From the IMG/VR virus record IMGVR_UViG_3300045988_007228, positions 1 through 42,765 of that record: a stretch of DNA of 42,765 bases; one strand, written 5' to 3'. The translations under genes were made by a program, and so were the position numbers. This document shows positions 2,348 through 32,747 of the stretch, in pieces; position 1 is the stretch's first letter, and every line of letters starts with the position of its first letter. The notes beneath the pieces are model-generated. The model searched no databases and had not been told where the DNA came from. It was given only the letters and a program-made list of their open reading frames with translations. This DNA is from a virus.

Positions 2348-2667
2348 TCGAGATTGTATACGACCGGATGAGGCTTCGGCTGACGGCTGACGGGCACGCG
2401 GGCTTCGCCGAGGCGGGGCAGGACATCGTATGCGCGGCGGTGACGATCCTTGTGTACACGCTGGCGGCCGCCGTGGGCAACATGGACGCCGCCGGGCAGG
2501 CGCGCGGCTCGAGCGTGGAGCTGGGCAGCGGGCACGCAGAGATCGTGTGCGCTGCATCGCCGCGATGGCGCGCGTGCGCGAAGATGATCTGCGACCAGAT
2601 TTGCGCAGGATTCGATATCCTGCGGCAGATGTACCCGGAGCGCGTGCGCTACGATGTGCGCGGATAA
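2344..2667 (+). CDS. prp: Prp-like cysteine protease (ribosomal-processing protease family; phage capsid/scaffold N-terminal trimming)
   Basis: 107 aa. ATGA overlap with the portal stop. Motif TADGHAGFAEAGQDIVCAAVT matches the His/Cys dyad context (GHA...DIVCAAVS) of Prp/YsxB proteins. Confidence 0.75.
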   Translation: MIEIVYDRMRLRLTADGHAGFAEAGQDIVCAAVTILVYTLAAAVGNMDAAGQARGSSVELGSGHAEIVCAASPRWRACAKMICDQICAGFDILRQMYPERVRYDVRG

Positions 2668-2684
2668 AAAATTTTCAGAGATCC

Positions 2685-2720
2685 GAGGCCGAGGGATAGA
2701 GAAAGCCCTCGGCCTTTTTG
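2685..2720 (+). terminator. Rho-independent terminator after prp
   Basis: 9-bp GC stem ggccgaggg (2687-2695) / ccctcggcc (2706-2714), 10-nt loop, then TTTTT (2715-2719). Confidence 0.7.
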
Positions 2721-2804
2721 TATGCTGGAAGTGCGAGGGTGCAGGGGCTTTCGCGTGTGTACCTCCTTTCTTTTCCCATTTTCCCATCTCCTTTTCTCTT
2801 GGCG

Positions 2805-2832
2805 CCCACGCAGCGGGGGGCTGCTGCGTGGG
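2805..2832 (+). promoter_or_regulatory. Perfect 10-bp GC-rich hairpin in the prp-scaffold gap (function unknown)
   Basis: cccacgcagc (2805-2814) / gctgcgtggg (2823-2832) with an 8-nt G-rich loop and no T-run. Preceded by a CT-only tract around 2762-2800. Confidence 0.4.
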
Positions 2833-2944
2833 TATCTATGCCGCCGCGAGGCGCACTGCAGCGATGGACTGCAAGTGCCGGTGCAACTCCGGCTGACGGC
2901 GACAGGGTCGTGGCCTACCACAGATTTTTGACGGAGGCATCCTT

Positions 2945-3991: not shown

Positions 3992-4048
3992 CGACGTGCG
4001 GCGGCTCCTCCCGGACGAACGACATTTTCTGAAAGGGGAAGCTATTTT

Positions 4049-5155
4049 ATGAAGACCATTCTTTATTCCATGCTCGGCCTGCAGCTTTTCGCGGACGCGG
4101 GCACGCTGGTCAATGCGACCGGCAACTACGTCAACGCCTCGACCGGCACGACGACTGCGTTCGACGCAACGCACACGCTCGCGCCGGAGCTCAAGACCTT
4201 CTACGACACGGAGCTGCTGGAAAATGCCCGCGCCGAGATGTTTTATGCCCAGTTCGGCAAAAAGCAGGCGCTGCCGAAAAACCACGGCGGCACGGTCGAA
4301 TGGCGCAAGTGGAACACCTTCGAGAAGGCAGGTAAGCTGACCGAAGGCGTGATCCCGACCGGCCAGAAGTTTGGCGTGACCAAGCTCGAGGGAAGCATCA
4401 CCCAGCACGGCACGTACACCAGCATCACCGACCGCCTGGAGCTGCGCGCCTACGACGACGTGATCCTCGGCGCGACCGAGGAGATGGGCGCGAGCGCGGC
4501 CGAAACGCAGGAGACGCTCATCCGCGACGCGCTGCTGACCAACACGAACGTGCTCTACTGCGACAACATCAGCGCGGCCGGCGCGTATATCTCCACGCCG
4601 ACCTCCTGCGCCGAGATGGGCGCCGGCGGCGGCACGAGCGCTGCTGACGGCTACGCCTACCTGACGCCGGACATGATCGCCAAGGCGGTCACGAAGATGA
4701 AGAAGGACCGCGTGCCGACCATCAACGGCAAGTATTACGCCGTGATCCATCCGTCCGTCGCCTACGACCTGCGCAAGTCCAACGAGTGGATCGAGGCGCA
4801 CAAGTATGCCCAGCCGGACGAGATCTATAACGGCGAGATCGGCGAGCTGCACGGCGTGCGCTTCATCGAGAACACCTTCGCGCCCGTCCTGACCGGCACG
4901 GGCTACAAGAATAAGAGCGAAGGCGCGACCTACGCGACCTACTTCTTCGGCAAGGAGGCCTTCGGCATCATTGATCCGGAGGGCGGCGCGCTGGAGATGA
5001 TCGTGCACGACAAGTCCGAGATCGGCGGCCCGCTGAACCAGTTCAGCACCATCGGCTACAAGTTCGAGACCAATGGCGCGACCGTGCTCTACCCCGAGCG
5101 CCTGCTGCGCGTGATGAGCACGTCTGCTTACAGCGCCACGGACGAAGCCAACTGA
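4049..5155 (+). CDS. Major capsid protein (HK97-fold type)
   Basis: 368 aa directly after the scaffold gene. N-terminus MKTILYSMLGLQLF/ADAG carries a Prp-type LQxF/A site. The sequence resembles phage major capsid proteins (by eye). Confidence 0.8.
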   Translation: MKTILYSMLGLQLFADAGTLVNATGNYVNASTGTTTAFDATHTLAPELKTFYDTELLENARAEMFYAQFGKKQALPKNHGGTVEWRKWNTFEKAGKLTEGVIPTGQKFGVTKLEGSITQHGTYTSITDRLELRAYDDVILGATEEMGASAAETQETLIRDALLTNTNVLYCDNISAAGAYISTPTSCAEMGAGGGTSAADGYAYLTPDMIAKAVTKMKKDRVPTINGKYYAVIHPSVAYDLRKSNEWIEAHKYAQPDEIYNGEIGELHGVRFIENTFAPVLTGTGYKNKSEGATYATYFFGKEAFGIIDPEGGALEMIVHDKSEIGGPLNQFSTIGYKFETNGATVLYPERLLRVMSTSAYSATDEAN

Positions 5156-9967: not shown

Positions 9968-12900
9968 ATGACAGTCAAGAAAGCAGCAATCTCCATTGGC
10001 GATTGGCTCAAGAGCACGGGATTCTCCGCCGAGAAAACGCTTGCTTCGGCGCAGGAGCAGCGGAAAAACCTGCTGCAGCAGATGGACAACGCGAATGCAT
10101 CGTATCTAACCGGCGAGAATCGCGGCGCGCTGCAGAACGCATTCAGCAACTATCAGGCGACCATGAACGTGCTTCGCGGCGCCGGCTATGACACCGGAAA
10201 TGACGTCGACGTTCTGCGCAGAGCCGTGCACTCGTCCTTCGACTTCCAGAACCAGTTCAAGGATGAAAACGACTTCAACGTGTCGTATGCCTACCCGAAG
10301 AAATACAAGGGCAAGACCCGCACGGACGTGAATGCGGCGCTCGCGCAGCTCAAGAACACGCCGGGGGCCGAGGCGGAATATGACTGGCTGAACAAGAACC
10401 AGATGAATTACTGGTCTGCGGACGAGCTGAAGGCGCAGATCGGCGCGTGGCAGAACGAGATTTCCGGCATCGAACGGCAGCGCCGGAATATGCCGCGCAT
10501 GGCAGCTGGGAGCACAGACGCAGACTATGCCAAGCGGCAGCAGGAGGCGCTCGCGCTCTCGGGGCAGATCGATGAGCGAAAAGCGAAGATCGGGAAAGCG
10601 CAGAGCCTGCTCACGCGGAAGACCTACGATGACGAGATCAGCAAGTGGGACACGCAGATGCAGAGGGCGCTCTCCGACTACAGCAAGGCGCTGAGCGTGA
10701 GCGAGAGCGCGAACACGGAGATGGCGATGGCCGGGAACTCCGCATTTGTGGTGCAAAACAGTGACTATGCCACAAACGCGCGCAACACGGTGCGCAGCTT
10801 CGAGCAGCAGCTGCGTGATTACGGCTACAGTGACCAGCAGATTAACGGCATCCGCAACTACGCGCTCACGCAGCAGCACGCAAACGAGGCTTCGGAAATG
10901 GCACAGCAGGCAGCACAGGAGGCCAAGGAGCATCCGTGGCTTTTTTCCGCCATGTCTGTCGGCACGAATATGATGGCCGGAGCGGGTGCGCTCGACATTG
11001 CGGCACAGAATGCGCTGAACGGGACAGACCCGTTCACGGGCGAAAAAATGGCCGTCGACCGTTATACGAAATCCATGGTGCCGAGCACGGTGACGAACAC
11101 CATCCGCGGGAGCGTTTCCGAGGACATGAGCGGCATTGGGTCGTTCCTGTACAACACCGGCATGAGCATGGCAGACAGCCTGGCGACGCTGGCCGTCGGC
11201 GGCGCGACCGGCCTGCACGGCGCGGCGGACGTGATCCTCGGCGGCGCGGCGGCATCTCAGGCAATCACGGATGCGTATGACCGCGGTGCTTCTGACTCAC
11301 AGGCCATGTCGGTCGGCCTGCTCTACGGAACGGCCGAGGCGCTGTTTGAGCACATCAGCCTTGGTAAGCTGCGCACGTTCCATACGTCGGCGGCCGCCGG
11401 GAAGAAGACCGCGAAGACGCTGGTTAAGGATATGCTCAAGCAGAGCTTTGTGGAAGGCAGCGAGGAAGTCTGCACGGACATCGCAAACGTTATCTCCGAC
11501 GCGATCGTGATGGCCGACAAGAGCGAGATCAACCAGACGATCGCCGCCTATCAGGCAGACGGCATGAGCGAGGACGAGGCAACGCGCAGGGCGTGGCTTG
11601 ACTGGCTCGGACATACGGCGCAGGACTTTGCCGGAGGCATGATCTCCGGCGGCGTGATGACCGGCGGCGACATGGCGCTCAACGCCGGGATGCGAAGCGC
11701 GAATTACCGCGAGACCGGCCGACAGATCACGGCCAACGACTACGCGGACATCCTCCGCCACGCTGCAGAGGAAAGCGGCGACGAAAACCTCCGGAAGCTG
11801 GCCGGGAAGAAGCAGACGAACCGCAACACCGGCAAGCTCTACGAGGCGACACAGGAAGCAAATCTCACACAGGCAGTCTCTGACCGTCTGGGTGCGCTCG
11901 GCACGCCAGAAAACGACGTGCAGGAGCTGACCGGCCTCGTGGTCAAGCAAATCAAGGGGCAGGAGCTGACGGGCAAGGAACAGCGAAAATTTGACGCCAG
12001 CAAGCAGGCACAGCGCGCAGCGAGCGAGTATGCGTCCCTGTTCACGCGGGATGCAGACCGGACCACGAACGCATGGGCGCGCAGCCATATGCGTGACGCA
12101 GCCGAGCTGGAGCGCAACGCGATCTATGGCGGGGCGCGCAAGACTGACGCAGGGCAGACGCAGATGCATCATGCGGAGAAGAACGCCGAGGTGCAGGTAA
12201 ACGGTGAGGCCGCGCAGGTGCAGGCGCTTCGATATGACCAGGAGAGCGGCAGCGTGGAGCTGTCCGTGAAGGCCAAAAACGGCGATGTGCAGCGCGTTTC
12301 CGTGAAGGACGCCAAGCTGCCGGAGGGCACGCGCCTGCTCGCCGAGAGCGCGGAAAAATACGGCGAGACCGCGCCGCAGATGTACGCCAACTACCAGAAC
12401 GGGCAGGACGTGGAGCGCTACGCCAGCGCCTACGAGGTGGCATACTCTTACGGCCGTGCGGGCGTGAAAAACTACGCTGTGCTCGAGAACAGCGGCGCAG
12501 CATCGTATCTGACACCGGAGCAGCGGAAATTTGCCTACGAGACCGGCCTTGCCGCGGCACGCAGGGAATCGGACGCAAAGAGCGCGGCGGCCAAGAGCAG
12601 CGAAATTCAGGCCGGCAGCGTGACGCTGGAAGGCGGAAAGCTCGGAAACGTGACGCTCGCCGCCGTGAACACGGCCGGCCTGACGCGCAAGCAGACGGCG
12701 TCGATCGACGTGGCGCGCAAGGTGGCCGAGGCGACCGGCGTGAACGTCGTGTTCTTTGAATCGCAGACCGGAGAGGACGGCAAATACCTCGGCATGAACG
12801 GCGCATACCGCGATGGCACGATCTATCTGGACGTGAACGCAGGGAAGAACAACGTGGACACTGGCGAGACGGCCATCCTGAAGACGATGTCGCACGAGCT

Positions 12901-15900
12901 GACGCACTTTATCCAGCAGAACAGCGGCCAGTATGAGGCGCTGAAGGAATTTGTGACGAACCATGTGCTCGAGAGCGGCGACAGCATCGAGCGCCTTGCC
13001 CGGCAGAAGCTCGACAACGACTCGACCGGCGAGCTGACGATGGACGGCGCGATGGACGAGGTCGTGGCCGATGCGTGCGAGATGATGCTGCGCAACACCG
13101 AGGCCGTGCAGCGGCTGGCGAATGAGAACCGCAGCCTTGCCGAGAAGATCCGCGACTGGATCGGCGACTTCGTCAAGAAACTGCGTGCTGCGTTTAAGGG
13201 CGACCACGCGACGCACGACGAGGCGAGAGCCATGCTCGACCGCATGGTGGAGCTGCAGAAGATCTGGGACGATGCGCTGGTGGACGCGGCGAAGGTGAAT
13301 GCGGGGCGCGCCGGGGAGATTGCAAGCAACGGCGTGCAGGAATCGTCTCGCGGGAAGTACTGGCGGCCTGACCTGAATCAGCAGGAATGGTCGCTTTTGA
13401 ACCGGCGAATGGAAAAAGAACTCGACAGCGGCAAACAATATCTTGACGAATCCACAAAGTGGCTGTACGCTGAAGAAAAGGGTGTGAAGGTGTTCGCCTT
13501 GTACGGGGTGGGAGATGGTACTGAGGCGACCACACTGTATGCGGTCGGCGGAAAACAAGCCGCGCTGCAGAATGCGAATATTGCAGAATATGTTGAGAGG
13601 AGCAGAGAATATGACAGAGATGGACGATCTGTTGATTCGTGGGTTGAGTTGCTTCGGCGTAAGAAAGGGAGCAGGGGCAGAAATCTATCTCAGGGTCAAG
13701 GGCCAACCGGAGCTTCAGGAACGGCTCATGGACTATATGGCGGATCACCGCGAGGCAACGGCGGAAGAACTTCTGGACGTGGCTCGGAGAATCAGCGCAA
13801 AGTAAAAGAGCAGTTCTCCCTCCGCGAACCGGTGGAGCAGGTGCGTGATCTTGTCGCCGTGCATGGCCTGACGGAGCAGAACCTGCGTGGCGCACTCGCG
13901 CTCGGCGGATTGCCGATGCCAAGTATCGCGGTCGTAAAAGCTGCGCAAGGGCACAGCAAGTACGGCCCGATTTCCATGGTGTTCGGCAGGGAGAGTATTG
14001 ACCCGCAGGTTGACCCCAGGAACAAAATCTACGGCGGGGATGCCTACACGCCGACGGCACCGGCAGTGGAATATCCGGTGAACTACGACCGGATGCGCGC
14101 CGTGGAAAACCGAATCTCTGAGCTGAGCAAAAGCGTCGCCGGCGGTGTGTTCTGGAACAGCACCGCGCTTCAGCGCGCCGGTGCCGGCGAAGAGAGCAGT
14201 ATAAGCGCCGAAGAGATGGCACAGAAACTTGCCAGAGACGACAGCGTGCGCGCGGCCTATCTGGCCGATCATGGGGAAACGCTCGAGCCGGTCATGCAGA
14301 CAAAGGAATTCAACCGATACGGCAATGACGCGCTGGCGAAACTGGTGCAGAAAATCGGCGTGCAGGAGCTCGCCCACGTTGAAGCGGACATGGAAACCGG
14401 GGACTATCAGTCTGCGCGAGAGATCGAAGACACGGTGCGCCAGATTATCCGCGACAGCTACGAGGAACAGCACCGCAGATTTCTGGACCGAAAGCCGGAA
14501 CTGAAGGAAAAGCGGCTTGACCACTTCATGGATAACAATGTCCATACTTCCACGGTTGAGGATTTCATCCAAGATGCGTGGGCATTTTACGAAGATCAGG
14601 GCGCTACAGCGGACGAAGTAGACCGATTGGCTACCAGCGACAAATTGCACGAGGCGACGGATACTGAGGACGTGAAGGCGTGGCTGCTGCCACAGCTGAA
14701 ATCTGTTTTTGGCGAGCCCGGCATTTACAACGGGAAGGAGCGCTATACCGCTTCTGGAGACAGACGCAGCTTTTCGCAGCTTCATTGGGAATACACGCTC
14801 GAGAACATTGTGAGTGCGATGGCGGAAACCCAGAAGGAGCGCGGCGGCCAGACGTGGGGGACGTCGGCCGGAGCTATGCAGGCTGTCAGCGCCGAGGACT
14901 TTTCCAGCATTGATGAAGTGAAGGCTGCGAGCGGCAGACTCGGCAAAGTGGAAGGTGAGCAGTATGAAGCGGCGAAGAATGCTGTTGAAAATCTGATCGA
15001 TCAGGCGACACGCGCCGTTATGCGAGAGACGCGGCCGCACGCCGACAATTCGTTCGATGAAAGAGAAATTATCGGCGATGTTATGATGGAAGCGGCGAAG
15101 GGCAAGCGGACGGCGCGGGCCATTCAGCAGGCTTTTGCGAAAGAGGGATATTCGGTCAGTGAAGAAACTGCTCGCCGGATTCAAGAAGTGTATCAGGCGG
15201 CGGCTGCACTTTCGACGGAATATTTTGAGGCGAAGCCGCAGAGAGCGGTCGGCTTTGACGAGGTGAAAGTGGCCATTGTGCCGGACAACATCAACGCAGA
15301 GCTGAAACAGCAGCTTGAGGCCGCCGGTGTGCCCGTGCAGGAATACCGCGCCGGTGACGAGGGGCAGCGTCTTCGGATTCTGAACTCGGATAAATCGTGG
15401 CAGTTTTCCGAGCGCGACTATTCCTACGAGATACTGACAGCAAAGCCGGATATGCGTGTGACGAACGTGGAAGACCGTGTGTCATACCGGCCGGCACGCG
15501 AGGCACGCAAGGAAATCGTCGCGCGCGCGATCGCAAATGCGAAGAAAATCGGCCGGACGAACGAAAACGGCAATGCCGTGGTGCGCGTGGCAGACACGGG
15601 CGACGAGGTGATCTTGAGCGCGAAAGGGCTGCGGCACGGGCTGGACAGGCGGTTCTCTGTGAATGCGCCGGTGACGCTGAAAGCCGGTGAAATCATCCGG
15701 AATGCCATCCGCATCAACGAATTCACGCCGGAAAACGCGCAGGTGGATGCAAGCTATGCGCTGATCGGTGCAGCCAAAAACGCAAAAAACGAACCGTACA
15801 TCGTACAGTTCGTTGTAAACCGCATTTCCAATGAGGTGACAGACGTGGACGTGCTGTATGCAGTGAATGCAAAAAAAGAGCCGGGTGCATTGCTGCCAGA

Positions 15901-18900
15901 CGTCACCGGCACGGATGTGCCAGCTATTCTTACCGACTCTGCTATCAGTATACGCTCGCTCCTGGACTATGTCAATCGGTATTTCCCGGATGTTCTGCCG
16001 GAAAGTGTGCTCCGGCATTATAGCTACGAGCGCAGACCTGCTGGGAAACTCGGAGAGAGTGCGCTTTATCAGCACCGCGACGACACGCGGACAGACCGCG
16101 ACGTGCTCTCCGATGCTGCGGACGGCGACGCGGCCAACGTGCGCGAGATGGAGATGCTGCGCGATTACCGGGAGAAACTGCAGAAATACAGCTCGCTCAC
16201 ACGGAGGCTGGAGCAGCAGCGCGAGCTTGCGCAGAACGCGGAAAGCAAGGAGGAGCGCCTGAAGGCGAGAAACCGCGCGGACAACCTGGCTGCGCAGGTG
16301 AGCCGAGCGGACGCGCAGCTCACGCGGATGCAGAACGCGAAACCGCTGCGCGAGCTGGTGGCGCGCGAGCTGAAGACGCGCGACAGCCTGGCTAAGGAAA
16401 ACGCCATGCTGCGCGACCGCGTGGAGTATTTGCGTGGGCAGATGCAGCGCACGAAAGAGGCAACCACAGACCCGAAAGCCGTGCGGGAAGCCGCAAAGGA
16501 TATCATTGAGCGGACCGGCAGCAGCATCGGCGTGGACGAGGTGATGAGCCAGCTGCAGGAGCTGTACGACGGCATTGCCCGCGCGACCGGAGACAACGGG
16601 CTTACCTACGCGGAGATTCAGCAGCGCGCGGACGATCTCGCACACGACATTTTGAACGACGTGACTGCCGTTGACGACACGATGTACCGCGAGTATGAAG
16701 ACCTGCGGAGGTATTTCAAGGGTCAGCAGCTCGTCGTGTCCGCGGCTGACCGCGGGGAAATTCCGGACTTCGGAGATTTCCGACGGAGAAACATGGGCCG
16801 AATGCGGCTGAAAAACGGCGAGCGGACGAACGTTGACCAGGTTTACGCAGAGCTGAGTGAGCTGTACCCAGAATTCTTTGACCAGAACCGCGAGAGCCAG
16901 CCGAGCGACCAGCTATACCGCATTGCCGATGTGCTGGACGCGGTGTACTCCGTGAACGAGTACAACCCAAACGCGCAGTATATGCGCGAAGCGACGCAGA
17001 GTGTGAGCAACGAGATCCTTGAGCAGTTTTTCGACCTGCCGCAGCAGAGAACGTTTGCCGACCGGCAGGCGAAGAAGGACGAACAGCAGAAGACGCACTA
17101 CCTCAACCAGATCAACGAGCTGCGCAAGGCCAATGACACGCGCATCGCGGAGTTGCGGGCGCAGAACCGCAAACGGCTGCAGGAAGCCATAGCAAGAGAG
17201 CGCGAGAAACGCGACGAGCAGATTGCGCGGCTGAAAGACAGGAACGCGGCAGATAAGGCGCGCCGCGAGGAAAGCGCGGCCGTGGCGAAATACCGCCCAC
17301 GCATCGAGCAGAAGGCGAAGCGCCTGAGCGATTGGCTGCTGAAAAACAGCGATAAGGAGCACATCCCGGAGCCGTTGAAGCTGGCAGTGGGCGAGTTCCT
17401 GGAATCCATTGACTTTACAAGCAAACGTGCGCTGGACGGCGGCGCGCTGACGAAAAAGGACATTCAGCGTTCGCTCCGGTATACTGACCGGATGCAGAAG
17501 CTGCTGGACAGCCTGCGTGGGCAGAACGAGGACGGCACGAGCGACCTCGGGCTGTATCTGGACATTCCGGACGGCTTCCTCGAGGAGATGCAGACGCATA
17601 TCAGCATTGCTGCCGATATCATCAGTCAGAACCCAGGAGAGAGCGTTGTCAGCAAGATGAAACTGGAGCAGCTGCAGCAGCTCGACCGGATGCTCACGAT
17701 CCTGACGCGCAGCATCCAGAACGCGAACAAACTCAAGGCAAATGCGCACTTTGAGACTGCACGGCAGGCGGCGCAGGCGACGGTGCTGGAGCTCGACCGG
17801 CTGGGGCAGGCCAAAGGAAGATCGCAGCGCGGAGAGAAAGTGGCTGGTTTCTTCAGCTGGGAGAACACGACACCGTACTACGCTTTCCAGCGCTTCGGTG
17901 AGGGCGGCAAGGCGATCTTCGAGGCACTGTCGGCCGGCTGGGATCAGATGGCCTTCAACACGAAGTCGGTCATGAGATTCACGGAGCAGACATACAAGCC
18001 GGAAGAAGTAAAGGCGTGGTCGAAGGAAACGCACACGATCGAGCTCGAAAGCGGAAAGACCGTGAAGATGACGACTGCGCAGATGATGGCGTTTTACTGC
18101 CTGTCGAAGCGCGAGCAGGCCGTCGGCCATCTCCTTGGCGGCGGTATGCGCGTGGAGGACATCCAAAACAGTGGGCGCAAGGGGAACATCAAGCAGGCGA
18201 AGCCGTTCCTGCTGACGCAGGAGGACATCATCAAGATCAACGGCGCGCTCACAAAGCGGCAGCGTGAGGTGGCGGACAAGCTGCAGAAGTACATGACGCA
18301 GCAGGGCAGCGAGTGGGGCAACCGCGTGTCGATGGAACGCTTTGGATATCGCGCGTTCACTGAGGAGAACTACTTCCCCATCGAGACGATGGACTCCGAC
18401 CGCGACGAGAGGGGCGTCCCGCAGAAAGAGAACGATATGTTCCGCCTACTCAATATGTCCGCGACGAAGAGCCTCGTCTACAAGGCGAACAACGCGCTCG
18501 TCGTTCACGACATCTTCGATGTGTTTGCAAACCACATGACGGACATGGCAAAGTATGACGCGCTGGCGCTGCCGATCCTCGACGCGATGAAGTGGTACAA
18601 CTACCGCGAGAAGCAGAAGCTTGAAAACGGTCACGTGCTCACGACGACGGTGCAGCGGTCGCTCGAACAGGCATACGGCACGGACGCCAACAAGTATTTC
18701 ACGACGTTCATCAAGGACCTGAACGGCGTGAACGAAGGCGGCCGCGGGGAGGGCTTTGCGAAGAAGATGCTCTCCAACTACAAGGTGGCGGCCGTGGCTG
18801 CGAACCTGCGTGTGGCGCTGCTGCAGCCGACAGCGTATGTGCGCGCGGTCGGCGTGATGGACCCGAAGTATCTCGTAAAGGCGTTCGCGGAGGGAAAAAG

Positions 18901-20755
18901 CGCATACAAAGAGGCAGAGGCGAACAGCGGCATCGCTCTGTGGAAGCAGATGGGCTTTTACGACACGAACATCGGCCGGGGTGTCCGCGACCAGATCAAG
19001 AACGCCGGGACGTGGAAGGACTCGACGGTCGAATTCCTTATGATGGGCGCAGAATGGGCAGACCGGCTGACGTGGGGACGCTTGTGGAACGCCTGCAAAG
19101 CGGAGGTGCGTGACAAGCAGAAGCTGACCGGCGACGCGCTGCTAAAGGCGACGGCCGAACGCTTCCGGGAGGTCATCTACTCGACGCAGGTGGTGGACAG
19201 CACGATGACACGCAGCCAGGCGATGCGCGCGACCGGCGTGTACGGTGCTGTATCTACGGCCTTTATGTCGGAACCGACGCTGTCGTACAATCTGCTGCTC
19301 AAGGCGTATACGGACTACACGGCGGAGCTGCGCGCGACCGGCGACAAAAAAGAAGCGTGGAGAAACGCAAGCGGGAAAATCGCAAGAGCGCTGGCGACCT
19401 ATCTTGTGTCGGCGACTGCTTCGGGGCTTGCCGAATCAATCGTGGACGCCTGCAGAGACGACGACGAGTACGCCACGTGGTTGGAGAAGTACCTGAGCGC
19501 GCTGATCGGCGCGAAATACAAAGACGGAAAGTTTTCCGGCGTGAACCCGCTTGAAAGCAACCTGTTCATGGACGTGGATATCCTCTCGAAGCTCCCGATC
19601 CTCAAGGATTTCATGTCGATGATCTCCGGGTACGAAAACGACCGGATGGACACGGAATGGATCAGCAACCTGATCGACGCATATCGGATCTGGGACGAGA
19701 CGATCAAGCTGGAGACAGGTGAGCTGGACGAGCCGACGGACGTGACGTACAACGGCAACATGACGCTGTACGGAAAGATCTACAAGACACTCAAGGCCGT
19801 TTCGCAGGCGACCGGCCTGCCGATCAGCGCGGCGAGCCGCGAGGTTGTAACGCTCTGGAACACCATCGCCGGAGCTGTCGGCAAGGGCGACGAGTGGACG
19901 ATCCATACCTATGACTCCGGGCCGGAGAGCCAGATCAAGTACGGCCTGATGGACGGTTACCTCACGCGCGAAGAGGCGCAGCAGCTGCTGGTCGAAAAAG
20001 GGCTCGCGGACAACGAGGATGATGCGTACTGGAAGGTTGACAAGTGGGCGACCGGCGAAGGAAAGTACGACGAGGCGCTCGCTGCGGTGCTCAGCGGCGA
20101 CAAGACCGCCTTCGATGCGCAGGCCAAGGAGTTGAAAGAGCACGGCATCGGCGAGAAGCAGCTGCAGTCTGCGGTGCGCTCGCAGGCAAAGGAGTGGTAC
20201 GTCGGCGACGACGACGGAAAGCGCTCGATCACGAAGGAACAGGCGCTGAAGATCCTGCAGCAGTACGGAGGAAAAGACGCCGACGAGGCGCAGAAACTGG
20301 TGCAGAAGTGGACGTGCGAGGTCGTGACCGGCACGGACTACGACGACATCAAGGATCTGTATCTCGACGGGAAGCTCACGCGGTCTCGCGCGGTAGACAT
20401 GCTGACGCGCTACGGCGGGATGAAGCAGGAGGATGCGCAGAACAAGATCGACACGGCGGACTTTGTGAAGGCACATCCGGAATGCGACGGCATCAGCGTT
20501 GAGGCCGTGCAGAAGTACAACGAGCAGGCGAAAGCGGCCGGCCTGGACGCGGGGACGTTCTGGCAAGCATATCAGTTTAAAAACGACGCAAGGACTACGC
20601 GCGACAGCAACGGCAAGGCCATCAGCGGTCAGGGAGCAATGGACAAGGTCGCTGCGTACATCGACGGGCTGGACATCAGTTCGGCGCAGAAAAACGCTCT
20701 GTTTTTGTGCTTCTACAGCCAAAAATCGCTCGGGAAGATCCGCTGGAGCAATTAA
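9968..20755 (+). CDS. Giant 3,595-aa multidomain protein; polyvalent-protein-like, probable virion-packaged/ejected protein
   Basis: Single uninterrupted ORF of 10.8 kb. Gly-rich hydrophobic segments around aa 325-480. HExxH (SHELTHF, nt 12893-12907) in a zincin-like context. Several blocks resemble LPD-type modules of polyvalent proteins (by memory). Long coiled coils. C-terminal helical repeats. Confidence 0.8.
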   Translation: MTVKKAAISIGDWLKSTGFSAEKTLASAQEQRKNLLQQMDNANASYLTGENRGALQNAFSNYQATMNVLRGAGYDTGNDVDVLRRAVHSSFDFQNQFKDENDFNVSYAYPKKYKGKTRTDVNAALAQLKNTPGAEAEYDWLNKNQMNYWSADELKAQIGAWQNEISGIERQRRNMPRMAAGSTDADYAKRQQEALALSGQIDERKAKIGKAQSLLTRKTYDDEISKWDTQMQRALSDYSKALSVSESANTEMAMAGNSAFVVQNSDYATNARNTVRSFEQQLRDYGYSDQQINGIRNYALTQQHANEASEMAQQAAQEAKEHPWLFSAMSVGTNMMAGAGALDIAAQNALNGTDPFTGEKMAVDRYTKSMVPSTVTNTIRGSVSEDMSGIGSFLYNTGMSMADSLATLAVGGATGLHGAADVILGGAAASQAITDAYDRGASDSQAMSVGLLYGTAEALFEHISLGKLRTFHTSAAAGKKTAKTLVKDMLKQSFVEGSEEVCTDIANVISDAIVMADKSEINQTIAAYQADGMSEDEATRRAWLDWLGHTAQDFAGGMISGGVMTGGDMALNAGMRSANYRETGRQITANDYADILRHAAEESGDENLRKLAGKKQTNRNTGKLYEATQEANLTQAVSDRLGALGTPENDVQELTGLVVKQIKGQELTGKEQRKFDASKQAQRAASEYASLFTRDADRTTNAWARSHMRDAAELERNAIYGGARKTDAGQTQMHHAEKNAEVQVNGEAAQVQALRYDQESGSVELSVKAKNGDVQRVSVKDAKLPEGTRLLAESAEKYGETAPQMYANYQNGQDVERYASAYEVAYSYGRAGVKNYAVLENSGAASYLTPEQRKFAYETGLAAARRESDAKSAAAKSSEIQAGSVTLEGGKLGNVTLAAVNTAGLTRKQTASIDVARKVAEATGVNVVFFESQTGEDGKYLGMNGAYRDGTIYLDVNAGKNNVDTGETAILKTMSHELTHFIQQNSGQYEALKEFVTNHVLESGDSIERLARQKLDNDSTGELTMDGAMDEVVADACEMMLRNTEAVQRLANENRSLAEKIRDWIGDFVKKLRAAFKGDHATHDEARAMLDRMVELQKIWDDALVDAAKVNAGRAGEIASNGVQESSRGKYWRPDLNQQEWSLLNRRMEKELDSGKQYLDESTKWLYAEEKGVKVFALYGVGDGTEATTLYAVGGKQAALQNANIAEYVERSREYDRDGRSVDSWVELLRRKKGSRGRNLSQGQGPTGASGTAHGLYGGSPRGNGGRTSGRGSENQRKVKEQFSLREPVEQVRDLVAVHGLTEQNLRGALALGGLPMPSIAVVKAAQGHSKYGPISMVFGRESIDPQVDPRNKIYGGDAYTPTAPAVEYPVNYDRMRAVENRISELSKSVAGGVFWNSTALQRAGAGEESSISAEEMAQKLARDDSVRAAYLADHGETLEPVMQTKEFNRYGNDALAKLVQKIGVQELAHVEADMETGDYQSAREIEDTVRQIIRDSYEEQHRRFLDRKPELKEKRLDHFMDNNVHTSTVEDFIQDAWAFYEDQGATADEVDRLATSDKLHEATDTEDVKAWLLPQLKSVFGEPGIYNGKERYTASGDRRSFSQLHWEYTLENIVSAMAETQKERGGQTWGTSAGAMQAVSAEDFSSIDEVKAASGRLGKVEGEQYEAAKNAVENLIDQATRAVMRETRPHADNSFDEREIIGDVMMEAAKGKRTARAIQQAFAKEGYSVSEETARRIQEVYQAAAALSTEYFEAKPQRAVGFDEVKVAIVPDNINAELKQQLEAAGVPVQEYRAGDEGQRLRILNSDKSWQFSERDYSYEILTAKPDMRVTNVEDRVSYRPAREARKEIVARAIANAKKIGRTNENGNAVVRVADTGDEVILSAKGLRHGLDRRFSVNAPVTLKAGEIIRNAIRINEFTPENAQVDASYALIGAAKNAKNEPYIVQFVVNRISNEVTDVDVLYAVNAKKEPGALLPDVTGTDVPAILTDSAISIRSLLDYVNRYFPDVLPESVLRHYSYERRPAGKLGESALYQHRDDTRTDRDVLSDAADGDAANVREMEMLRDYREKLQKYSSLTRRLEQQRELAQNAESKEERLKARNRADNLAAQVSRADAQLTRMQNAKPLRELVARELKTRDSLAKENAMLRDRVEYLRGQMQRTKEATTDPKAVREAAKDIIERTGSSIGVDEVMSQLQELYDGIARATGDNGLTYAEIQQRADDLAHDILNDVTAVDDTMYREYEDLRRYFKGQQLVVSAADRGEIPDFGDFRRRNMGRMRLKNGERTNVDQVYAELSELYPEFFDQNRESQPSDQLYRIADVLDAVYSVNEYNPNAQYMREATQSVSNEILEQFFDLPQQRTFADRQAKKDEQQKTHYLNQINELRKANDTRIAELRAQNRKRLQEAIAREREKRDEQIARLKDRNAADKARREESAAVAKYRPRIEQKAKRLSDWLLKNSDKEHIPEPLKLAVGEFLESIDFTSKRALDGGALTKKDIQRSLRYTDRMQKLLDSLRGQNEDGTSDLGLYLDIPDGFLEEMQTHISIAADIISQNPGESVVSKMKLEQLQQLDRMLTILTRSIQNANKLKANAHFETARQAAQATVLELDRLGQAKGRSQRGEKVAGFFSWENTTPYYAFQRFGEGGKAIFEALSAGWDQMAFNTKSVMRFTEQTYKPEEVKAWSKETHTIELESGKTVKMTTAQMMAFYCLSKREQAVGHLLGGGMRVEDIQNSGRKGNIKQAKPFLLTQEDIIKINGALTKRQREVADKLQKYMTQQGSEWGNRVSMERFGYRAFTEENYFPIETMDSDRDERGVPQKENDMFRLLNMSATKSLVYKANNALVVHDIFDVFANHMTDMAKYDALALPILDAMKWYNYREKQKLENGHVLTTTVQRSLEQAYGTDANKYFTTFIKDLNGVNEGGRGEGFAKKMLSNYKVAAVAANLRVALLQPTAYVRAVGVMDPKYLVKAFAEGKSAYKEAEANSGIALWKQMGFYDTNIGRGVRDQIKNAGTWKDSTVEFLMMGAEWADRLTWGRLWNACKAEVRDKQKLTGDALLKATAERFREVIYSTQVVDSTMTRSQAMRATGVYGAVSTAFMSEPTLSYNLLLKAYTDYTAELRATGDKKEAWRNASGKIARALATYLVSATASGLAESIVDACRDDDEYATWLEKYLSALIGAKYKDGKFSGVNPLESNLFMDVDILSKLPILKDFMSMISGYENDRMDTEWISNLIDAYRIWDETIKLETGELDEPTDVTYNGNMTLYGKIYKTLKAVSQATGLPISAASREVVTLWNTIAGAVGKGDEWTIHTYDSGPESQIKYGLMDGYLTREEAQQLLVEKGLADNEDDAYWKVDKWATGEGKYDEALAAVLSGDKTAFDAQAKELKEHGIGEKQLQSAVRSQAKEWYVGDDDGKRSITKEQALKILQQYGGKDADEAQKLVQKWTCEVVTGTDYDDIKDLYLDGKLTRSRAVDMLTRYGGMKQEDAQNKIDTADFVKAHPECDGISVEAVQKYNEQAKAAGLDAGTFWQAYQFKNDARTTRDSNGKAISGQGAMDKVAAYIDGLDISSAQKNALFLCFYSQKSLGKIRWSN
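13611..13805 (+). CDS. Nested out-of-frame 64-codon ORF inside the giant gene (candidate overlapping gene)
   Basis: GAGGAG 8 nt upstream of ATG 13611. Translation MTEMDDLLIRGLSCFGVRKGAGAEIYLRVKGQPELQERLMDYMADHREATAEELLDVARRISAK is globular-looking. The codon-position GC pattern favours this frame over the giant frame here. Confidence 0.5.
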   Translation: MTEMDDLLIRGLSCFGVRKGAGAEIYLRVKGQPELQERLMDYMADHREATAEELLDVARRISAK

Positions 20756-28073: not shown

Positions 28074-28288
28074 CACTGGAAGAACTGGCCGCGAAGCCGT
28101 CGGAGATCCTGACGTGCGCGGACGTGGCCCCGCTGCTGGCCTGCAGCCCGTGGACGCTGCACGAGCAGGCAATGGAAGACCCATACGCGCTTGGCTTCCC
28201 GGTGATCGTCGCAAAGCGGCGAGTGAAGATCCCGAAGCGGGCGTTCATCCGCTTTATGCGCGGAGAAATAGAGGGAGAGAGAACATGA
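28070..28288 (+). CDS. Excisionase-family/MerR-like HTH DNA-binding protein
   Basis: GTG start overlapping the upstream stop (GTGA). ILTCADVAPLLACSPWTL...RRVKIPKRAFIRFMRG fits the HTH_17-type pattern (by eye). Confidence 0.5.
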   Translation: MTLEELAAKPSEILTCADVAPLLACSPWTLHEQAMEDPYALGFPVIVAKRRVKIPKRAFIRFMRGEIEGERT

Positions 28289-28440
28289 AGGTATTCGGAG
28301 ATCCGCGCGCGCGGGCAAAGGCACGCCGCTACATCGTCTGGGGCATCGAGGACGGCATCGTCTGTGCGAGCTTCCTCGGCGGCATCGCGCTGGCCGGATG
28401 GGTGTTCCACGTGATTTTCACGGCACTGGGGGTGGCATGA
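28285..28440 (+). CDS. 51-aa membrane protein
   Basis: ATGA overlaps on both sides. One TM span (IVCASFLGGIALAGWVFHVIFTALGV). Confidence 0.45.
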   Translation: MKVFGDPRARAKARRYIVWGIEDGIVCASFLGGIALAGWVFHVIFTALGVA

Positions 28441-29987
28441 TGCAACACCTCGGCGACATCACGAAAATCGACGGCGCGGCAATCGAGCCGGTGTGGTGCG
28501 TGACGGGCGGAAGCCCGTGTCAGGACCTGAGCATCGCGGGCAAGCGTGCCGGTCTCGTAGGCGCGCGAAGCGGCCTGTTTATGGAACAGATTAGAGTGAT
28601 AAAGGAGATGAGGGCACATGACAAGCAGCTTGGCTGGGCAGGAGAGCTTATTCGCCCCAGATACATGGTCTGGGAAAACGTCCCCGGAGCGCTCAGCAGC
28701 AACAATGGCCGAGACTTTGCGGCCGTGCTCGAAGAAACGATCCGCCTCGTCGAACCGGAAGCCCCCGGTATTGAAGTGCCTGCAAAAGGCTGGCCTACCT
28801 GGGGGGGATACCGGGACGTGGACGGACGATGGAGCGTGGCTTGGCGAGTACACGACGCGCAATACTGGGGAGTGCCCCAACGTCGTCGTAGAATCGCGCT
28901 TGTCGCAGATTTTGGAGGCGACACCGCACACGAAATACTGTTTGAGCGCACGGGCGTGTCAGGGGATCCTGAATCGCGCGGCGAGACGCGGGAAAGACTT
29001 GCCGGATATGCTGAAGCAGGCGCTTCGTATGCAGTCCGAATCAGGGGGGGCTGTGAAGGCGGCGGAAAAGGCGCGCTGATCCAGACGGAGAAATCCGGAA
29101 CGCTTGGGACGGGAAACGACCAGACGATTTTCTGCTATGGAATCTCTGCTTACGAAAGCAACGCCATGAAATCCAGCAATCCGAAAAGCGGTGTGTATGT
29201 GGCGGACACCAGCCGGACGCTTGACCTGAATGGCGGGAATCCGGCTTGCAATCAGGGTGGCATTGCCGTGGTGCAAAGGGCGTATCAGATGCAGGGCTTT
29301 GGCGATTACCGCGAAGCTGACGTCGCCAGCTCCTGCAAACAGCGAGACTACAAGGACAGCACAGATCTGGTTATCGGAATTGACGGAGAATGCAATGCCT
29401 ATATAGAACAATATGGCACACTGCGAGCGCACGCGAGCGGCGGTGCGGAAGAAACGCTTATGCATCGCATGGTCGTGCGGCGTCTGACCCCGCTGGAATG
29501 TGAACGGCTTCAGGGATTTCCGGATGGCTGGACGGACATCGGCGACTATACCGACAGCACCGGCAAAAAGCGCAAGACATCCGACAGCGCACGGTACAAG
29601 GCGCTCGGCAACAGCATCGCGCTTCCGTTCTGGCGATGGATGTTCGGGCGCATGGCGGCCTATCTGCCGGAAGGTGCGACACTCGGCAGCCTGTTTGACG
29701 GCATCGGAGGCTTCCCGCTGTGCTGGGAAGACGTGCACGGCGCTGGAACGGCAGTATGGGCAAGCGAGATCGAAGAGTTCCCGATCGCCGTGACCAAGAA
29801 AAGATTTGGAAGTGAAAACATGATTCACTACACGTTGAATATTGAACCGCCGATTGAACCTCCGGCCTACACCTGCCCGATTTGCCCGGTGTGCGGTGCG
29901 GAGACGGACACGGTGTACAAGAACGTTTATGGCGATCCGGTTGGTTGCCCAGGATGTGTCACGGAGGTGGACGCATGGGCGGAATGA
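28437..29987 (+). CDS. DNA (cytosine-5)-methyltransferase with circularly permuted motif order and a C-terminal zinc ribbon
   Basis: Motif IV GGSPCQDLS (PCQ at 28515-28523). Motif VI ENVPG (from 28674). Motif VIII QRRRR (28878-28892). Motif IX RRLTPLECERLQGFPDGWT. Motif X YKALGNSIALP (GNS at 29607-29615). Only then motif I LFDGIGGF (29694-29714) and motif II SEIEEF (29763-29780). Tail is CPICPVC...CPGC. Confidence 0.85.
   Translation: MMQHLGDITKIDGAAIEPVWCVTGGSPCQDLSIAGKRAGLVGARSGLFMEQIRVIKEMRAHDKQLGWAGELIRPRYMVWENVPGALSSNNGRDFAAVLEETIRLVEPEAPGIEVPAKGWPTWGGYRDVDGRWSVAWRVHDAQYWGVPQRRRRIALVADFGGDTAHEILFERTGVSGDPESRGETRERLAGYAEAGASYAVRIRGGCEGGGKGALIQTEKSGTLGTGNDQTIFCYGISAYESNAMKSSNPKSGVYVADTSRTLDLNGGNPACNQGGIAVVQRAYQMQGFGDYREADVASSCKQRDYKDSTDLVIGIDGECNAYIEQYGTLRAHASGGAEETLMHRMVVRRLTPLECERLQGFPDGWTDIGDYTDSTGKKRKTSDSARYKALGNSIALPFWRWMFGRMAAYLPEGATLGSLFDGIGGFPLCWEDVHGAGTAVWASEIEEFPIAVTKKRFGSENMIHYTLNIEPPIEPPAYTCPICPVCGAETDTVYKNVYGDPVGCPGCVTEVDAWAE
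28618..29079 (+). other. 153-codon alternative-frame ORF inside the methyltransferase gene (candidate overlapping ORF; unproven)
   Basis: AAGGAG 10 nt upstream of ATG 28618. Non-junk amino-acid composition. G7 tracts at 28801-28807 and 29044-29050. Confidence 0.25.
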
Positions 29988-30271
29988 CGGACACCTACAT
30001 CAAAGGCGGGATGCTGCAAAGCCATCACTGCGACGGCTGCGCGCACTACCGGCCGCTGTACGAATCCACGCCGAAGACAAGCCCGAGGGTGTGCCTATAC
30101 ATTTTAAATTTTAAGCGCTCGCGCGGATGCCCGGCCGGAGCCGGATGCCCGCACCGGATCACGCCGGAGGACTGGGCGAAAGAAAAAAGCGGCATGGAAG
30201 CCATGCGCGCCCGGATGCGCAGCAGCCGGGGCGGGGCGAAAAACCGCGGGAGAAAGAAGGAAAGCACATGA
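29975..30271 (+). CDS. Small Cys-rich protein (about 98 aa), unknown function
   Basis: Start overlaps the methyltransferase stop. HHCDGCAHY...CLY...RGCPAGAGCPH cysteine/histidine pattern. Basic tail. Confidence 0.5.
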   Translation: MGGMTDTYIKGGMLQSHHCDGCAHYRPLYESTPKTSPRVCLYILNFKRSRGCPAGAGCPHRITPEDWAKEKSGMEAMRARMRSSRGGAKNRGRKKEST

Positions 30272-31203
30272 TCACGAAGACGACGACCGTCGGCATGACG
30301 GAGGAACAATGGCACGCCGAGCGGCGCAAGAGCATCGGCGGCAGCGACGCCGGGACGATCCTGGGGCTGAACAAATACAGCTCGCCCTATGCGCTGTGGG
30401 CCGAGAAGACCGGGCGCGTGACGCCGGAGGACATCAGCGACCGCGAGGCGGTGCGGCTGGGACACGATCTGGAGGACTATGTGGCAAAGCGTTTCGCCGA
30501 GGCGACCGGAAAGCGGGTGCGGCGGGAAAACCACTTTCTCGTCAACAGCGACTATCCCTTCGCGCACGCGCTGCCGGACCGCATGGTGATTGGCGAGGAT
30601 GCCGGGCTGGAATGCAAGACGACGTCCAGCTTCGAGATTCCGAAGCAGTGCGCAGAGGGCGAATTTCCGGCGGTGTGGTACTGCCAGATCATGCACTACA
30701 TGATGGTGACGGGCGCGCCGGTATGGTATCTCGCGGTGCTGTGCTTCGGGCGTGGATTTTACTGGTTTCGCGTGGAGCGCGACGAGGGCGAAATTTCGGC
30801 TCTGGCGGCTGCCGAGCAGGAGTTTTGGGATTATGTACGGAGCGGGACAGAACCGCCTGTGGACGGAACGGACGCGACAGCGGAGGCGCTGCGCACGATC
30901 TACCCCGACAGCAGGGACGGCGAGACGTGCGACCTTGGCGCGGTGCAGTCCGCAGTGCGCAGCTACACGGCGCTGGGCGAGCAGATCGATGAGCTCAAGC
31001 GGCTGCAGGCGGAGCAGGCGGCGGCTATCCAGCAGTTTATGGGCACGGCGGAAAAGGGACTGTGCGGCGACGTTTCGATCACGTGGAAGACGCAGCAGCG
31101 CAGCACCTTCGACCGCAAGAAATGGGAAGCGGCGCACGGTGCGATCCCAAAGGAATACTTCAAGACGTCGCAGGCGCGGCCGTTCCGGGTGACGAGCCGA
31201 TGA
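30268..31203 (+). CDS. YqaJ-type (lambda Exo-like, PD-(D/E)XK) recombination exonuclease
   Basis: EEQWHAERRKSIGGSDAGTILGLNKYSSPYALWAEKTG... and ...GLECKTT... are typical YqaJ motifs. ATGA coupling. Sits upstream of recT. Confidence 0.8.
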   Translation: MITKTTTVGMTEEQWHAERRKSIGGSDAGTILGLNKYSSPYALWAEKTGRVTPEDISDREAVRLGHDLEDYVAKRFAEATGKRVRRENHFLVNSDYPFAHALPDRMVIGEDAGLECKTTSSFEIPKQCAEGEFPAVWYCQIMHYMMVTGAPVWYLAVLCFGRGFYWFRVERDEGEISALAAAEQEFWDYVRSGTEPPVDGTDATAEALRTIYPDSRDGETCDLGAVQSAVRSYTALGEQIDELKRLQAEQAAAIQQFMGTAEKGLCGDVSITWKTQQRSTFDRKKWEAAHGAIPKEYFKTSQARPFRVTSR

Positions 31204-31862: not shown

Positions 31863-32747
31863 ATGGAAAAGAATCTGATCCAGAAGCAGAAGACGGCCAT
31901 GGGTGCGAAGGGCGCAGCTGGTCAAAGCATCAACGCTATTTTAAATAGTGTCTTGGACGGCGAAAAAATGCGCGGCCGTTTTCAGGAATTGCTTGGCGCA
32001 CGCACGCCGCAGTTCTTGTCGTCAATCGTTTCGCTGGTAAACGCCGACGTGAATCTGCAGAAGGCAATGTATGAAGCGCCGATGACGGTCGTTCAGGCCG
32101 CGCTGAAAGCTGCGACCTACGATCTCCCGATTGAGCCGTCGCTTGGCTATGCCTATGTGGTGCCGTTCCACAACAAAGTTAAAACTGAAAACGGAAGCTG
32201 GAGCAAGCGCTGGGAAGGCGCGTTCATCATCGGCTACAAGGGCATGGAACAACTGTGCCTGCGCACCGGCGCCTATGCCCGCGTGCCGGATGCCGTGGAC
32301 GTCCGCGAAGGAGAGCTGATCCGCTACGACCGTCTGACCGGCGACGCGGAATTCGCGTGGATCGAAGATGAAGATGAACGCGAAAAGCTGCCGGTCATCG
32401 GATACGCCGGTTATTTCCGCCTGAAAAATGGCGCGGAAAAGACCATCTACATGACGGTGAAGCAGATTGAAAACCACGAAAAAAAGAACCGCAAGGGCGA
32501 ATACATGACCAAGGGTTGGCGCGACGATTTCGACGCAATGGCCCGAAAGACTGTCCTGCGCCGTCTGATCGGCAAGTACGGCCTGATGTCCATTGACTAT
32601 CGCAACGGCGATGCCAGCACAATGCGGCTGGCAGAAGCTGTCGCGGCGGATGAAGCACCTACGGATATGGGCGGCGACGTAATCGACCTGCCAGATTCCG
32701 AAATGGTCGACACGGAAACGGGCGAGGTGATCGGCGATGCTGAATAA
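31863..32747 (+). CDS. recT: RecT-family single-strand annealing protein
   Basis: 294 aa. Sequence resembles RecT (…PMTVVQAALKAATYDLPIEPSLGYAYVVPF…IIGYKGMEQL…). Neighbours are the exonuclease and SSB genes. Confidence 0.85.
   Translation: MEKNLIQKQKTAMGAKGAAGQSINAILNSVLDGEKMRGRFQELLGARTPQFLSSIVSLVNADVNLQKAMYEAPMTVVQAALKAATYDLPIEPSLGYAYVVPFHNKVKTENGSWSKRWEGAFIIGYKGMEQLCLRTGAYARVPDAVDVREGELIRYDRLTGDAEFAWIEDEDEREKLPVIGYAGYFRLKNGAEKTIYMTVKQIENHEKKNRKGEYMTKGWRDDFDAMARKTVLRRLIGKYGLMSIDYRNGDASTMRLAEAVAADEAPTDMGGDVIDLPDSEMVDTETGEVIGDAE

Follow-up and report, generated by a model that had tools for sequence, protein, structure and literature searches.

Can a DNA cytosine-5 methyltransferase (C5-MTase) whose conserved motifs run in the wrong order be a working enzyme, and how could such an order arise? 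The question is raised by an open reading frame (ORF) of 516 amino acids (aa) at 28437-29987 on the + strand of a viral DNA stretch of 42,765 nucleotides (nt), IMG/VR record IMGVR_UViG_3300045988_007228, which was analysed whole and is called the window here. The motif order in its product is III-IV-VI-VIII-target recognition domain (TRD)-IX-X-linker-I-II. From sequence comparison and structural modelling we consider it likely, with a probability of about 0.85, that the ORF encodes a functional single-chain C5-MTase that is a natural circular permutation. In the proposed arrangement, the β1-αA-β2-αB unit that binds S-adenosylmethionine (AdoMet or SAM) and contains motifs I and II would have been relocated from the N- to the C-terminus and tied to the post-motif X helix by an 8-residue linker, with the chain starting at motif III. 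The elements of the gene are as follows.

28285-28440, + strand: upstream ORF of 51 aa, its stop overlapping the MTase start as ATGA
28437-29987, + strand: permuted C5-MTase ORF, 516 aa, stop codon within the coordinates, start at ATG 28437 or 28440
28452-28466, + strand: motif III, GDITK, residues 6-10, now N-terminal; counterpart of HhaI G59-D60; G6 invariant
28515-28523, + strand: motif IV, PCQ, P27/C28/Q29, with the catalytic Cys; invariant
28674-28682, + strand: motif VI, ENV, residues 80-82; invariant
28878-28892, + strand: motif VIII, QRRRR, residues 148-152; R149 invariant
28946-29471, + strand: variable region, residues ~170-345, with three TRD-like 'TL...GG' modules
29478-29531, + strand: motif IX, RRLTPLECERLQGFPDGW, residues 348-365; R348 and R349 invariant
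29607-29615, + strand: motif X, GNS, residues 391-393, ahead of helix 396-407
29658-29681, + strand: linker AAYLPEGA, residues 408-415, joining the old C-terminus (post-X) to the old N-terminus (pre-I)
29694-29711, + strand: motif I, FDGIGG, residues 420-425, the AdoMet-binding loop; F420/G422/G424/G425 invariant; model confidence ~96
29757-29774, + strand: motif II, WASEIE, residues 441-446; E444 invariant
29796-29807, + strand: end of MTase homology, KKRF, residues 454-457, equivalent to the canonical junction ...RFP/xMKH

The ORF listing and translation showed that the frame is open throughout, as an earlier note on this DNA had stated, and that the protein begins MMQHLGDITK. Homologues have the N-termini M(M)QH or MKH, that is, at residue 1-2 of the window protein. 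At 28437 the MTase start codon and the upstream ORF's stop codon overlap as ATGA (context GGCATGATGCAAC), which agrees with the translational coupling proposed in the same note. Both C5 superfamily profiles matched above their curated thresholds: PF00145 (Pfam) scored 117.1 bits over 4 stretches against a cut-off of 22, and TIGR00675 scored 112.9 bits against a threshold of 100.65. A longer in-frame ATG is present at 28398, 13 codons 5' of the MTase start. The resulting extension (28398-28436, MGVPRDFHGTGGG) overlaps the upstream ORF, and its FHGTGG mimics motif I by chance.

Comparison with M.HhaI by phmmer gave a non-collinear set of matches, in which residues 418-459 paired with HhaI 16-55 (motifs I and II), residues 6-59 with HhaI 59-112 (III and IV), residues 136-157 with HhaI 149-170 (VIII) and residues 346-366 with HhaI 270-290 (IX). 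BLASTP against six canonical close relatives returned two high-scoring segment pairs (HSPs) in the wrong order, query 2-396 to subject 46-523 and query 415-457 to subject 3-43, the latter at 56-62% identity (E 1e-9 to 1e-12). When residues 415-457 were shifted to the front in silico, a single collinear HSP was obtained (1-439/3-523), and the E value went from 4e-130 to 2.5e-146. The circular permutation read from the motifs in the earlier note is thus confirmed, as is the homology of the C-terminal FDGIGG segment to motif I, since this segment aligns with HhaI 16-55 and with the canonical N-termini.

The same alignments mapped the permutation point. The canonical junction reads ...VTKxRFP[GNDE]MKH[LY]GDITK; the window protein starts at its internal Met, and MTase homology ends at ...VTKKRF, and therefore the cut lies between motifs II and III. 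The breakpoints named beforehand, an end at KKRF and a beginning at HLGDITK, match this junction exactly. Residues 1-2 correspond to canonical position 46 and residue 457 to position 43, and HhaI residues 55-59 span the junction. The window MTase departs from the canonical linear order I-X and has Type B topology, with the N-terminus between II and III and X linked to I. The motif order in the earlier note was right in placing I-II last and wrong in having the ORF open with motif IV, because GDITK is motif III (G6/D7 correspond to HhaI G59/D60). A second motif I-II copy or another MTase core was found by tblastn in no frame of the whole 42.7-kb window. A frameshift-hidden N-terminal motif I, which the note had named as a possible refutation, was rejected, as the I-II piece matched only the C-terminal copy.

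The relocated motifs are conserved together with the rest. In an alignment of 61 permuted homologues (48-97% identity), the invariant residues are G6, P27-C28-Q29, E80-N81-V82, R149, R348-R349, G391-N392-S393, F420, G422, G424, G425 and E444, and they span all catalytic and AdoMet-contacting motifs, relocated ones included. The catalytic set comprises IV (PCQ), VI (ENV), VIII (QxRxR), IX and X (GNS); for AdoMet there are FDGIGG of motif I (420-425) and the acidic residue E444 of motif II. AlphaFold2 (AF2), run with this alignment as input, gave a predicted local distance difference test (pLDDT) score of 86-97 for residues 1-170 and of 90-97 for residues 345-457. The relocated unit is modelled with high confidence as β416-419, α425-434, β439-443 and α447-457, the β1-αA-β2-αB pattern. 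Foldseek against the PDB returned M.HhaI as the top match (E 1.8e-9, probability 1.00), followed by M.MpeI, M.HaeIII and DRM; together with a core pLDDT above 86 this indicates an M.HhaI-like fold, the alignment being sequential only and the TRD lying outside the model. Given the high AF2 confidence, the adjacent native termini and the working direct fusion of engineered enzymes (PMC5944983), we infer that the relocated I-II unit closes intramolecularly on its own core.

The permuted layout is a trait of a very large family in phages and prophages of gut Clostridia, and no one-off. A search for homologous proteins gave at least 8000 matches; the ends are the same in each of the best 120 (74-100% identity), and the identical protein and proteins of 94-97% identity are present in independent assemblies. 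Representatives of clusters at 50% identity were classed by the order of three BLAST pieces: the best 150 of 30,025 matches included 134 with Type B order, 7 with canonical order, 3 that carry a second permutation and 6 that are incomplete. Eighty loci were recovered from IMG/VR, nearly all collinear from query residue 2 to ~460, and 80 from GTDB species genomes; the loci from both sources are nearly all permuted. The GTDB hosts include Oscillibacter, Dysosmobacter, Gemmiger, Acutalibacter, Lachnospiraceae, Intestinibacillus, Clostridium viride, Pelotomaculum, Faecalispora, Ruthenibacterium, Tissierellia and one Arcanobacterium. In a rough neighbour-joining (NJ) tree of the re-ordered cores, the canonical proteins are basal and 72 permuted ones fall in essentially one clade. 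Relatives at ~49% identity are encoded by the Faecalibacterium phages Toutatis and Lelie. The Toutatis MTase (L001, FP_Toutatis, MG711466.1) is annotated as two 'DNA-cytosine methyltransferase' coding sequences, 3001-3606 and 3648-4412, the first with motifs III-VI followed by an alternative-frame peptide after a G9 tract; the annotation is silent on the permuted order.

Several members carry insertions. Ten loci (L014, L017, L018, L025, L062, L078, L080 at ~3079-3086, L039, L045 and L046) contain a 4-nt insertion, TAGA or TAGC, that places an in-frame TAG right after the codon of the PCQ catalytic Cys, with the remainder of the gene in the +1 frame. Recoding of TAG to Gln was considered for these ten loci and rejected, as the frame stays unrestored. 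L071 has a 26-nt insertion after PCQD with a CAGGAT direct repeat, and the permuted member P0207 (1368 aa) has an intein-like insertion (C...HNC) directly after ENV, at residues ~92-450.

How could this order have arisen? In the proposed pathway, a canonical phage gene would have been duplicated in tandem and in frame, the internal Met of ...RFPxMKHLGDITK would have come into use as start, and a stop would have been gained after ...KKRF; from this single origin the family would then have radiated widely among the phages and prophages of gut Clostridia. P0122 (540 aa) bears on this pathway. Three independent contigs (L166 1637-3259, L167 and L168) carry it as a complete internal gene; its motif order is TRD'-IX-X-I-II-III-IV-VI-VIII-TRD'', and it keeps both junctions, an X-to-I linker nearly identical to that of the window MTase and the canonical II-to-III junction TRFPGMKHLGDITK. 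The occurrence within one family of canonical, Type B and both-junction variable-region permutant forms is what duplication followed by truncation predicts, and supports it at the sequence level. The origin by duplication and loss of both ends put forward in the earlier note is favoured by this and by the exact junctions. A second circular permutation is also seen in P0206 and P0237.

Permutants of M.MpeI and of M.SssI were made by Slaska-Kiss et al. (2018), who termed the II/III cut 'Class B' or Type B (PMC5944983). The II/III-cut forms, cp62M.MpeI and cp58M.SssI, were by far the most active, with the M.MpeI form close to wild type (PMC5944983). These engineered enzymes resemble the window MTase in having the N-terminus between II and III, native termini fused directly or via a short linker, and the order III...X-I-II. 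They are highly active laboratory forms, whereas the window family occurs in nature, in large numbers, has TRDs of several modules and in some members ends in a Zn-ribbon tail. A scan of 20,677 REBASE entries turned up 27 naturally permuted C5-MTases, each with its cut in the variable region (PMC5944983); the motif I regular expression of that 2018 scan would match SLFDGIG. The II/III cut was reported to be absent from natural C5-MTases, and weaker SAM binding in vivo was suggested as one reason (PMC5944983). The directed-evolution permutants of M.HaeIII start between II and IV (Peisajovich et al. 2006, as cited in PMC5944983). In the topology classification of Samokhina and Alexeevski, updated in December 2025, the m5C enzymes are only canonical C and M2.Eco31I-like F. 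As far as shown by the literature covered, this is the first recognised natural C5-MTase family permuted between II and III; its predicted fold and chemistry are those of an established enzyme class.

The earlier note had named M.BssHII as the only well-known permuted m5C enzyme. Its permutation is indeed a different one, but it is not the sole natural case, others being M.Alw26I, M2.Eco31I, M.Esp3I, M2.BsaI and the plant DRMs (PMC5944983). M.BssHII and the former four (ζ, 'Type H', topology F) have X joined to I like the window MTase; unlike it, they have the N-terminus in the variable region and the order (TRD)-IX-X-I...VIII. The window MTase has its variable region in the interior, with IX-X after VIII and I-II at the end, and P0122 is closer to the ζ/Type H class than the window MTase is. 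Plant DRM2/ntDRM have a rearranged C5 fold that gives weak sequence matches and good local structural matches to the window MTase. These enzymes are eukaryotic and have a different cut site, VI-X preceding I-V, whereas III and IV are N-terminal in the window MTase. The canonical relatives (P0168, P0196, P0222, P0242, P0262, P0267, the MTase of Streptococcus phage Javan191, and the C5 domain of P1 Dmt; 41-53% core identity) share with it the TRD modules, the junction ...RFPxMKHxGDIT and an overlapping +1-frame ORF, but their I-II is N-terminal. The multispecific C5-MTases of the Bacillus phages SPR, phi3T, rho11s and H2 carry tandem TRDs between VIII and IX; like the window gene, with its three TRD-like modules, they are phage orphans, and unlike it they have canonical order.

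The variable region and the C-terminal tail contain the following elements.

Residues 197-232, + strand: TRD-like module M1, 'TL...GG' type, resembling the TRD core of HhaI
Residues 233-283, + strand: TRD-like module M2, of the same type
Residues 284-345, + strand: TRD-like module M3, of the same type
29874-29957, + strand: C-terminal Cys cluster, C480, C483, C486, C504 and C507, a zinc-ribbon-like add-on with pLDDT ~75

M2 recurs in canonical relatives at other positions (66-85% identity), the M1/M2 order is reversed in P0262, and the order and number of modules vary among relatives, with variable regions of 93-773 aa across the family. With three TRD-like modules, more than one target sequence is therefore probably methylated, and the enzyme is probably multispecific, with several targets. 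P0149 and P0207 each have >10 TRD-like modules. The CxxCxxC...CxxC tail noted earlier is present with its five Cys, but the zinc ribbon is a rare lineage-specific fusion: a tail of at least 40 aa after motif II was found in 4 of the 134 permuted cluster representatives. P0074 lacks a zinc ribbon and ends KKRFGGAIT, and in L006 a homologous zinc-ribbon piece lies upstream (460-609) in another frame. The tail (29820-29987) begins at an internal Met, MIHYTLNIEPP.... Because of this Met and of the separate piece in some relatives, the tail probably derives from a small gene, downstream or neighbouring, that became fused by stop loss.

The rest of the window is that of a podovirus-like phage. The structural genes are portal (410-2344), major head protein (4049-5152), internal virion protein and, before the MTase, tail fibre; the structural module also includes a 3595-aa ORF (9968-20752) that matches phrog_22978 (function unknown) with 1330 bits. 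On the 3' side of the MTase are a RecE-like exonuclease (30268-31200), RecT (31863-32744) and a replication initiator. A megablast search of INPHARED with a 22.8-kb query turned up no close annotated phage, just two short fragment matches. No nuclease partner lies next to the MTase, which is therefore an orphan. As an orphan early gene in the RecE/RecT module, it would protect phage DNA against host restriction, and multispecific shielding of this kind appears to be its most likely role.

The MTase gene also overlaps a second ORF in the +1 frame, and its G runs coincide with frame changes in relatives.

28602-28607, + strand: AAGGAG, Shine-Dalgarno-like, 5' of the +1 ATG and inside main-frame K-E-M-R
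28618-29079, + strand: overlapping +1-frame ORF, 153 aa, spanning motifs VI-VIII, N-terminal QESLF
28801-28807, + strand: G7 tract 1; where relatives have G9, the MTase N-half continues into the +1 ORF
29044-29050, + strand: G7 tract 2; relatives with G8 here read the +1 ORF into TRD-IX-X-I-II (two-ORF form)

By tblastn, the +1 product matched 129 phage records, including P1 dmt and P7 and phages of Vibrio, Pectobacterium, Streptococcus (39% GC), Mycobacterium and Caulobacter, and the match was +1 relative to the annotated MTase frame in 4/4 genes checked. The +1 ORF is kept in canonical (P1 dmt, Javan191, Lucky2013, DMCA) and permuted MTase genes (L002-L005, L006-L165). In a codon-resampling null that held each protein and its codon usage constant (300 resamples), +1-frame identity to P1, Javan191, Lucky2013 and DMCA over main residues 126-200 was 0.38-0.55 against 0.19-0.22 expected (z 5-8, 0/300 resamples). 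The excess is confined to main residues 126-200, with none elsewhere in the same genes. Similarity arising purely from main-frame conservation was rejected as the sole cause by this null, and judged by it the +1 frame is under selection. Over 148 loci, the +1 frame was open for a median of 147 codons, against 34 for the +2 frame and ~80 for shuffled codons. The +1 ATG lies 13-28 nt after the main-frame KEMR codons in 123 of 137 loci, and the Arg codon of KEMR is AGR in 128/137 loci versus 34% gene-wide.

In the window, QESLF is encoded at 28636-28650. The N-terminal pattern is Q-x-[ST]-L-F, occurring as QLSLF in 25 loci, QLTLF in 14 and QVSLF in 33 called proteins (P0271-P0390). The pattern matches QL(S/D)LF, the pentapeptide that binds the bacterial β clamp (PMC9690074), and suggests a possible β sliding-clamp or replisome tether for the MTase. 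AF2 predicted the first 90 residues of the +1 product to be disordered and a C-terminal domain of ~50 residues to be helical; the product thus has a disordered middle before the helical ...SRLSQILE..KYCLSARACQGILNRAARRGKDLP..L..AL. Sequence searches of Pfam, NCBIfam and the PDB returned no family match, PHROGs gave one weak match only (E 0.01), and Foldseek on the AF2 model found nothing significant. In the Mycobacterium phage Lucky2013, gp113 (L002 1059-1898) is annotated as a 'DNA methylase' of only 280 aa that covers motifs I-VIII, with small overlapping ORFs after it; its +1 ORF begins MTFDQLDLF, and the gene may likewise be a split or frame-switching MTase.

In isolate genomes, among them those of Anaerotignum sp. 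MB30-C6, Schnuerera and Anaerovorax, the MTase is encoded by two genes, an α of 220-230 aa with motifs I-VIII and an overlapping +1 β with the alternative-frame domain followed by TRDs, IX and X. β starts inside α in the +1 frame with an overlap of ~115-150 codons (L148, L150, L138 and permuted split loci), as in L148 from Anaerotignum sp. MB30-C6 (NZ_CP133078.1; α 1995-2654, β 2302-3957). In the permuted split versions (L008, L070, L072, L079, L064), β also carries I-II. Since β begins with the +1 domain, the +1 ORF is on this comparison the β-subunit N-terminal region, kept as a separate ORF in single-chain genes. The two-subunit, overlapping-frame layout is that of L008, L070, L148 and L150, and the window gene has one open frame. 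M.AquI is a heterodimeric C5-MTase. In M.EcoHK31I the β chain is encoded in another frame within the α gene (PMC2836561), which makes it the nearest precedent for the α/β relatives L148, L150, L138 and L008, with a β ORF inside α in another frame. The M.EcoHK31I β has motif IX only and lies wholly inside α, whereas that of the relatives combines a novel N-terminal domain with TRDs, IX and X (also I-II when permuted); the window gene is single-chain, unlike heterodimeric M.EcoHK31I.

The two G7 tracts lie on either side of the conserved stretch of the +1 ORF, and across the family G runs of at least 7 cluster at these sites. A G8 at the second site goes with the split state in L008, L070, L097 and L105, and a G9 at the first site joins the N-half to the +1 ORF in Toutatis and L140; only clear classes of the frame-state table were used, as it contains mis-assigned ones, e.g. 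(2,1,0). The length differences look like slippage-prone switching and could reflect phase variation, and some may be homopolymer sequencing errors because many loci come from one metagenome. That the gene is a dual-coding switchable module, with a +1 protein that is made and docks on the clamp and with G7 tracts that switch states, is a tentative proposal with the odds somewhat against it. Under it, the QxSLF peptide would dock on the host β sliding clamp, the helical C-domain would contact the MTase or DNA, methylation would be coupled to the replication fork, by analogy with the PCNA-binding region of DNMT1, and the tracts would enable a phage population to alternate among single-chain, split and truncated forms.

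What else could the ORF be? An N-truncated dead MTase fused with a 5' fragment from another MTase gene, the inactive remnant of a tandem pair, would have this architecture, and frame disruptions occur in many relatives. Such decay is very improbable, however, in view of AdoMet-binding and catalytic residues that are invariant in 61 homologues down to 48% identity, boundaries that are identical in 134 clusters at 50% identity, an ORF that is intact and translationally coupled, and engineered equivalents that are fully active. Hardly credible is a sequencing or assembly artefact that hides a normal N-terminal motif I. The extension from ATG 28398 offers FHGTGG as a superficial FxGxGG fit, but this lies 2 residues before MMQH, with no space for αA-β2; homologues start at residue 1-2, an identical protein and proteins of 94-97% identity come from independent assemblies, and a motif I-II homologue is absent elsewhere in the window in all frames. 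The C-terminal I-II unit could instead complete the core of a partner chain in an obligate, domain-swapped dimer. Fragments [1-61] and [62-395] of M.MpeI complement in trans (PMC5944983), two-subunit split relatives exist and the linker is short (8 aa). Yet linkerless engineered permutants are as active as GGGSG-linked ones, native C5-MTase termini are adjacent (PMC5944983) and AF2 confidence for the I-II unit in the monomer is very high, which leaves the swap improbable.

A heavier doubt concerns whether the single chain is the main product in vivo, or whether slippage on G7 or +1 translation yields a two-subunit enzyme or a truncated regulator, the 516-aa chain being just one state among several. 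The tracts at 28801-28807 and 29044-29050, the relatives split or fused by G8/G9 at those sites, the stable split α/β genes in isolate genomes and the selection on the +1 frame all speak for such a product. It is nonetheless less likely than not, since the long frame stays open through both tracts in the window, ENV, VIII and IX share one frame in 92/136 loci, and some tract-length differences may be homopolymer errors. A natural single-chain permuted C5-MTase is the reading we prefer, and several points weigh against it or its corollaries. Activity and target sequence are predicted, from sequence and model. The variable region (~170-345) has an AF2 pLDDT of only ~30, giving no usable model of the TRD, and the packing of the relocated unit against the core is taken from confidence values, not contacts. 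Multispecificity is suggested by module counts and shuffling only. Canonical P0168 nests within the permuted clade of the NJ tree, and the single origin is therefore not strict. Finally, no natural Type B enzyme was found in the literature searched, but Peisajovich et al. (2006) may report examples.

Circular permutation of DNA methyltransferases is a textbook case of topology evolution via duplication and truncation, for which one natural cut site in C5-MTases, in the variable region, had been recognised before. The present family indicates that nature uses the II/III cut site that proved best in the laboratory, and does so on a large scale in gut phages. With canonical, Type B and both-junction forms in one family, the duplication pathway becomes directly testable on natural sequences. 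The order III...X-I-II should be anticipated in annotation pipelines, in topology classifications and in REBASE-style motif scans. If translated, the +1 ORF would make a common phage gene, P1 dmt included, dual-coding over a deeply conserved region, and may link methylation to the replisome.

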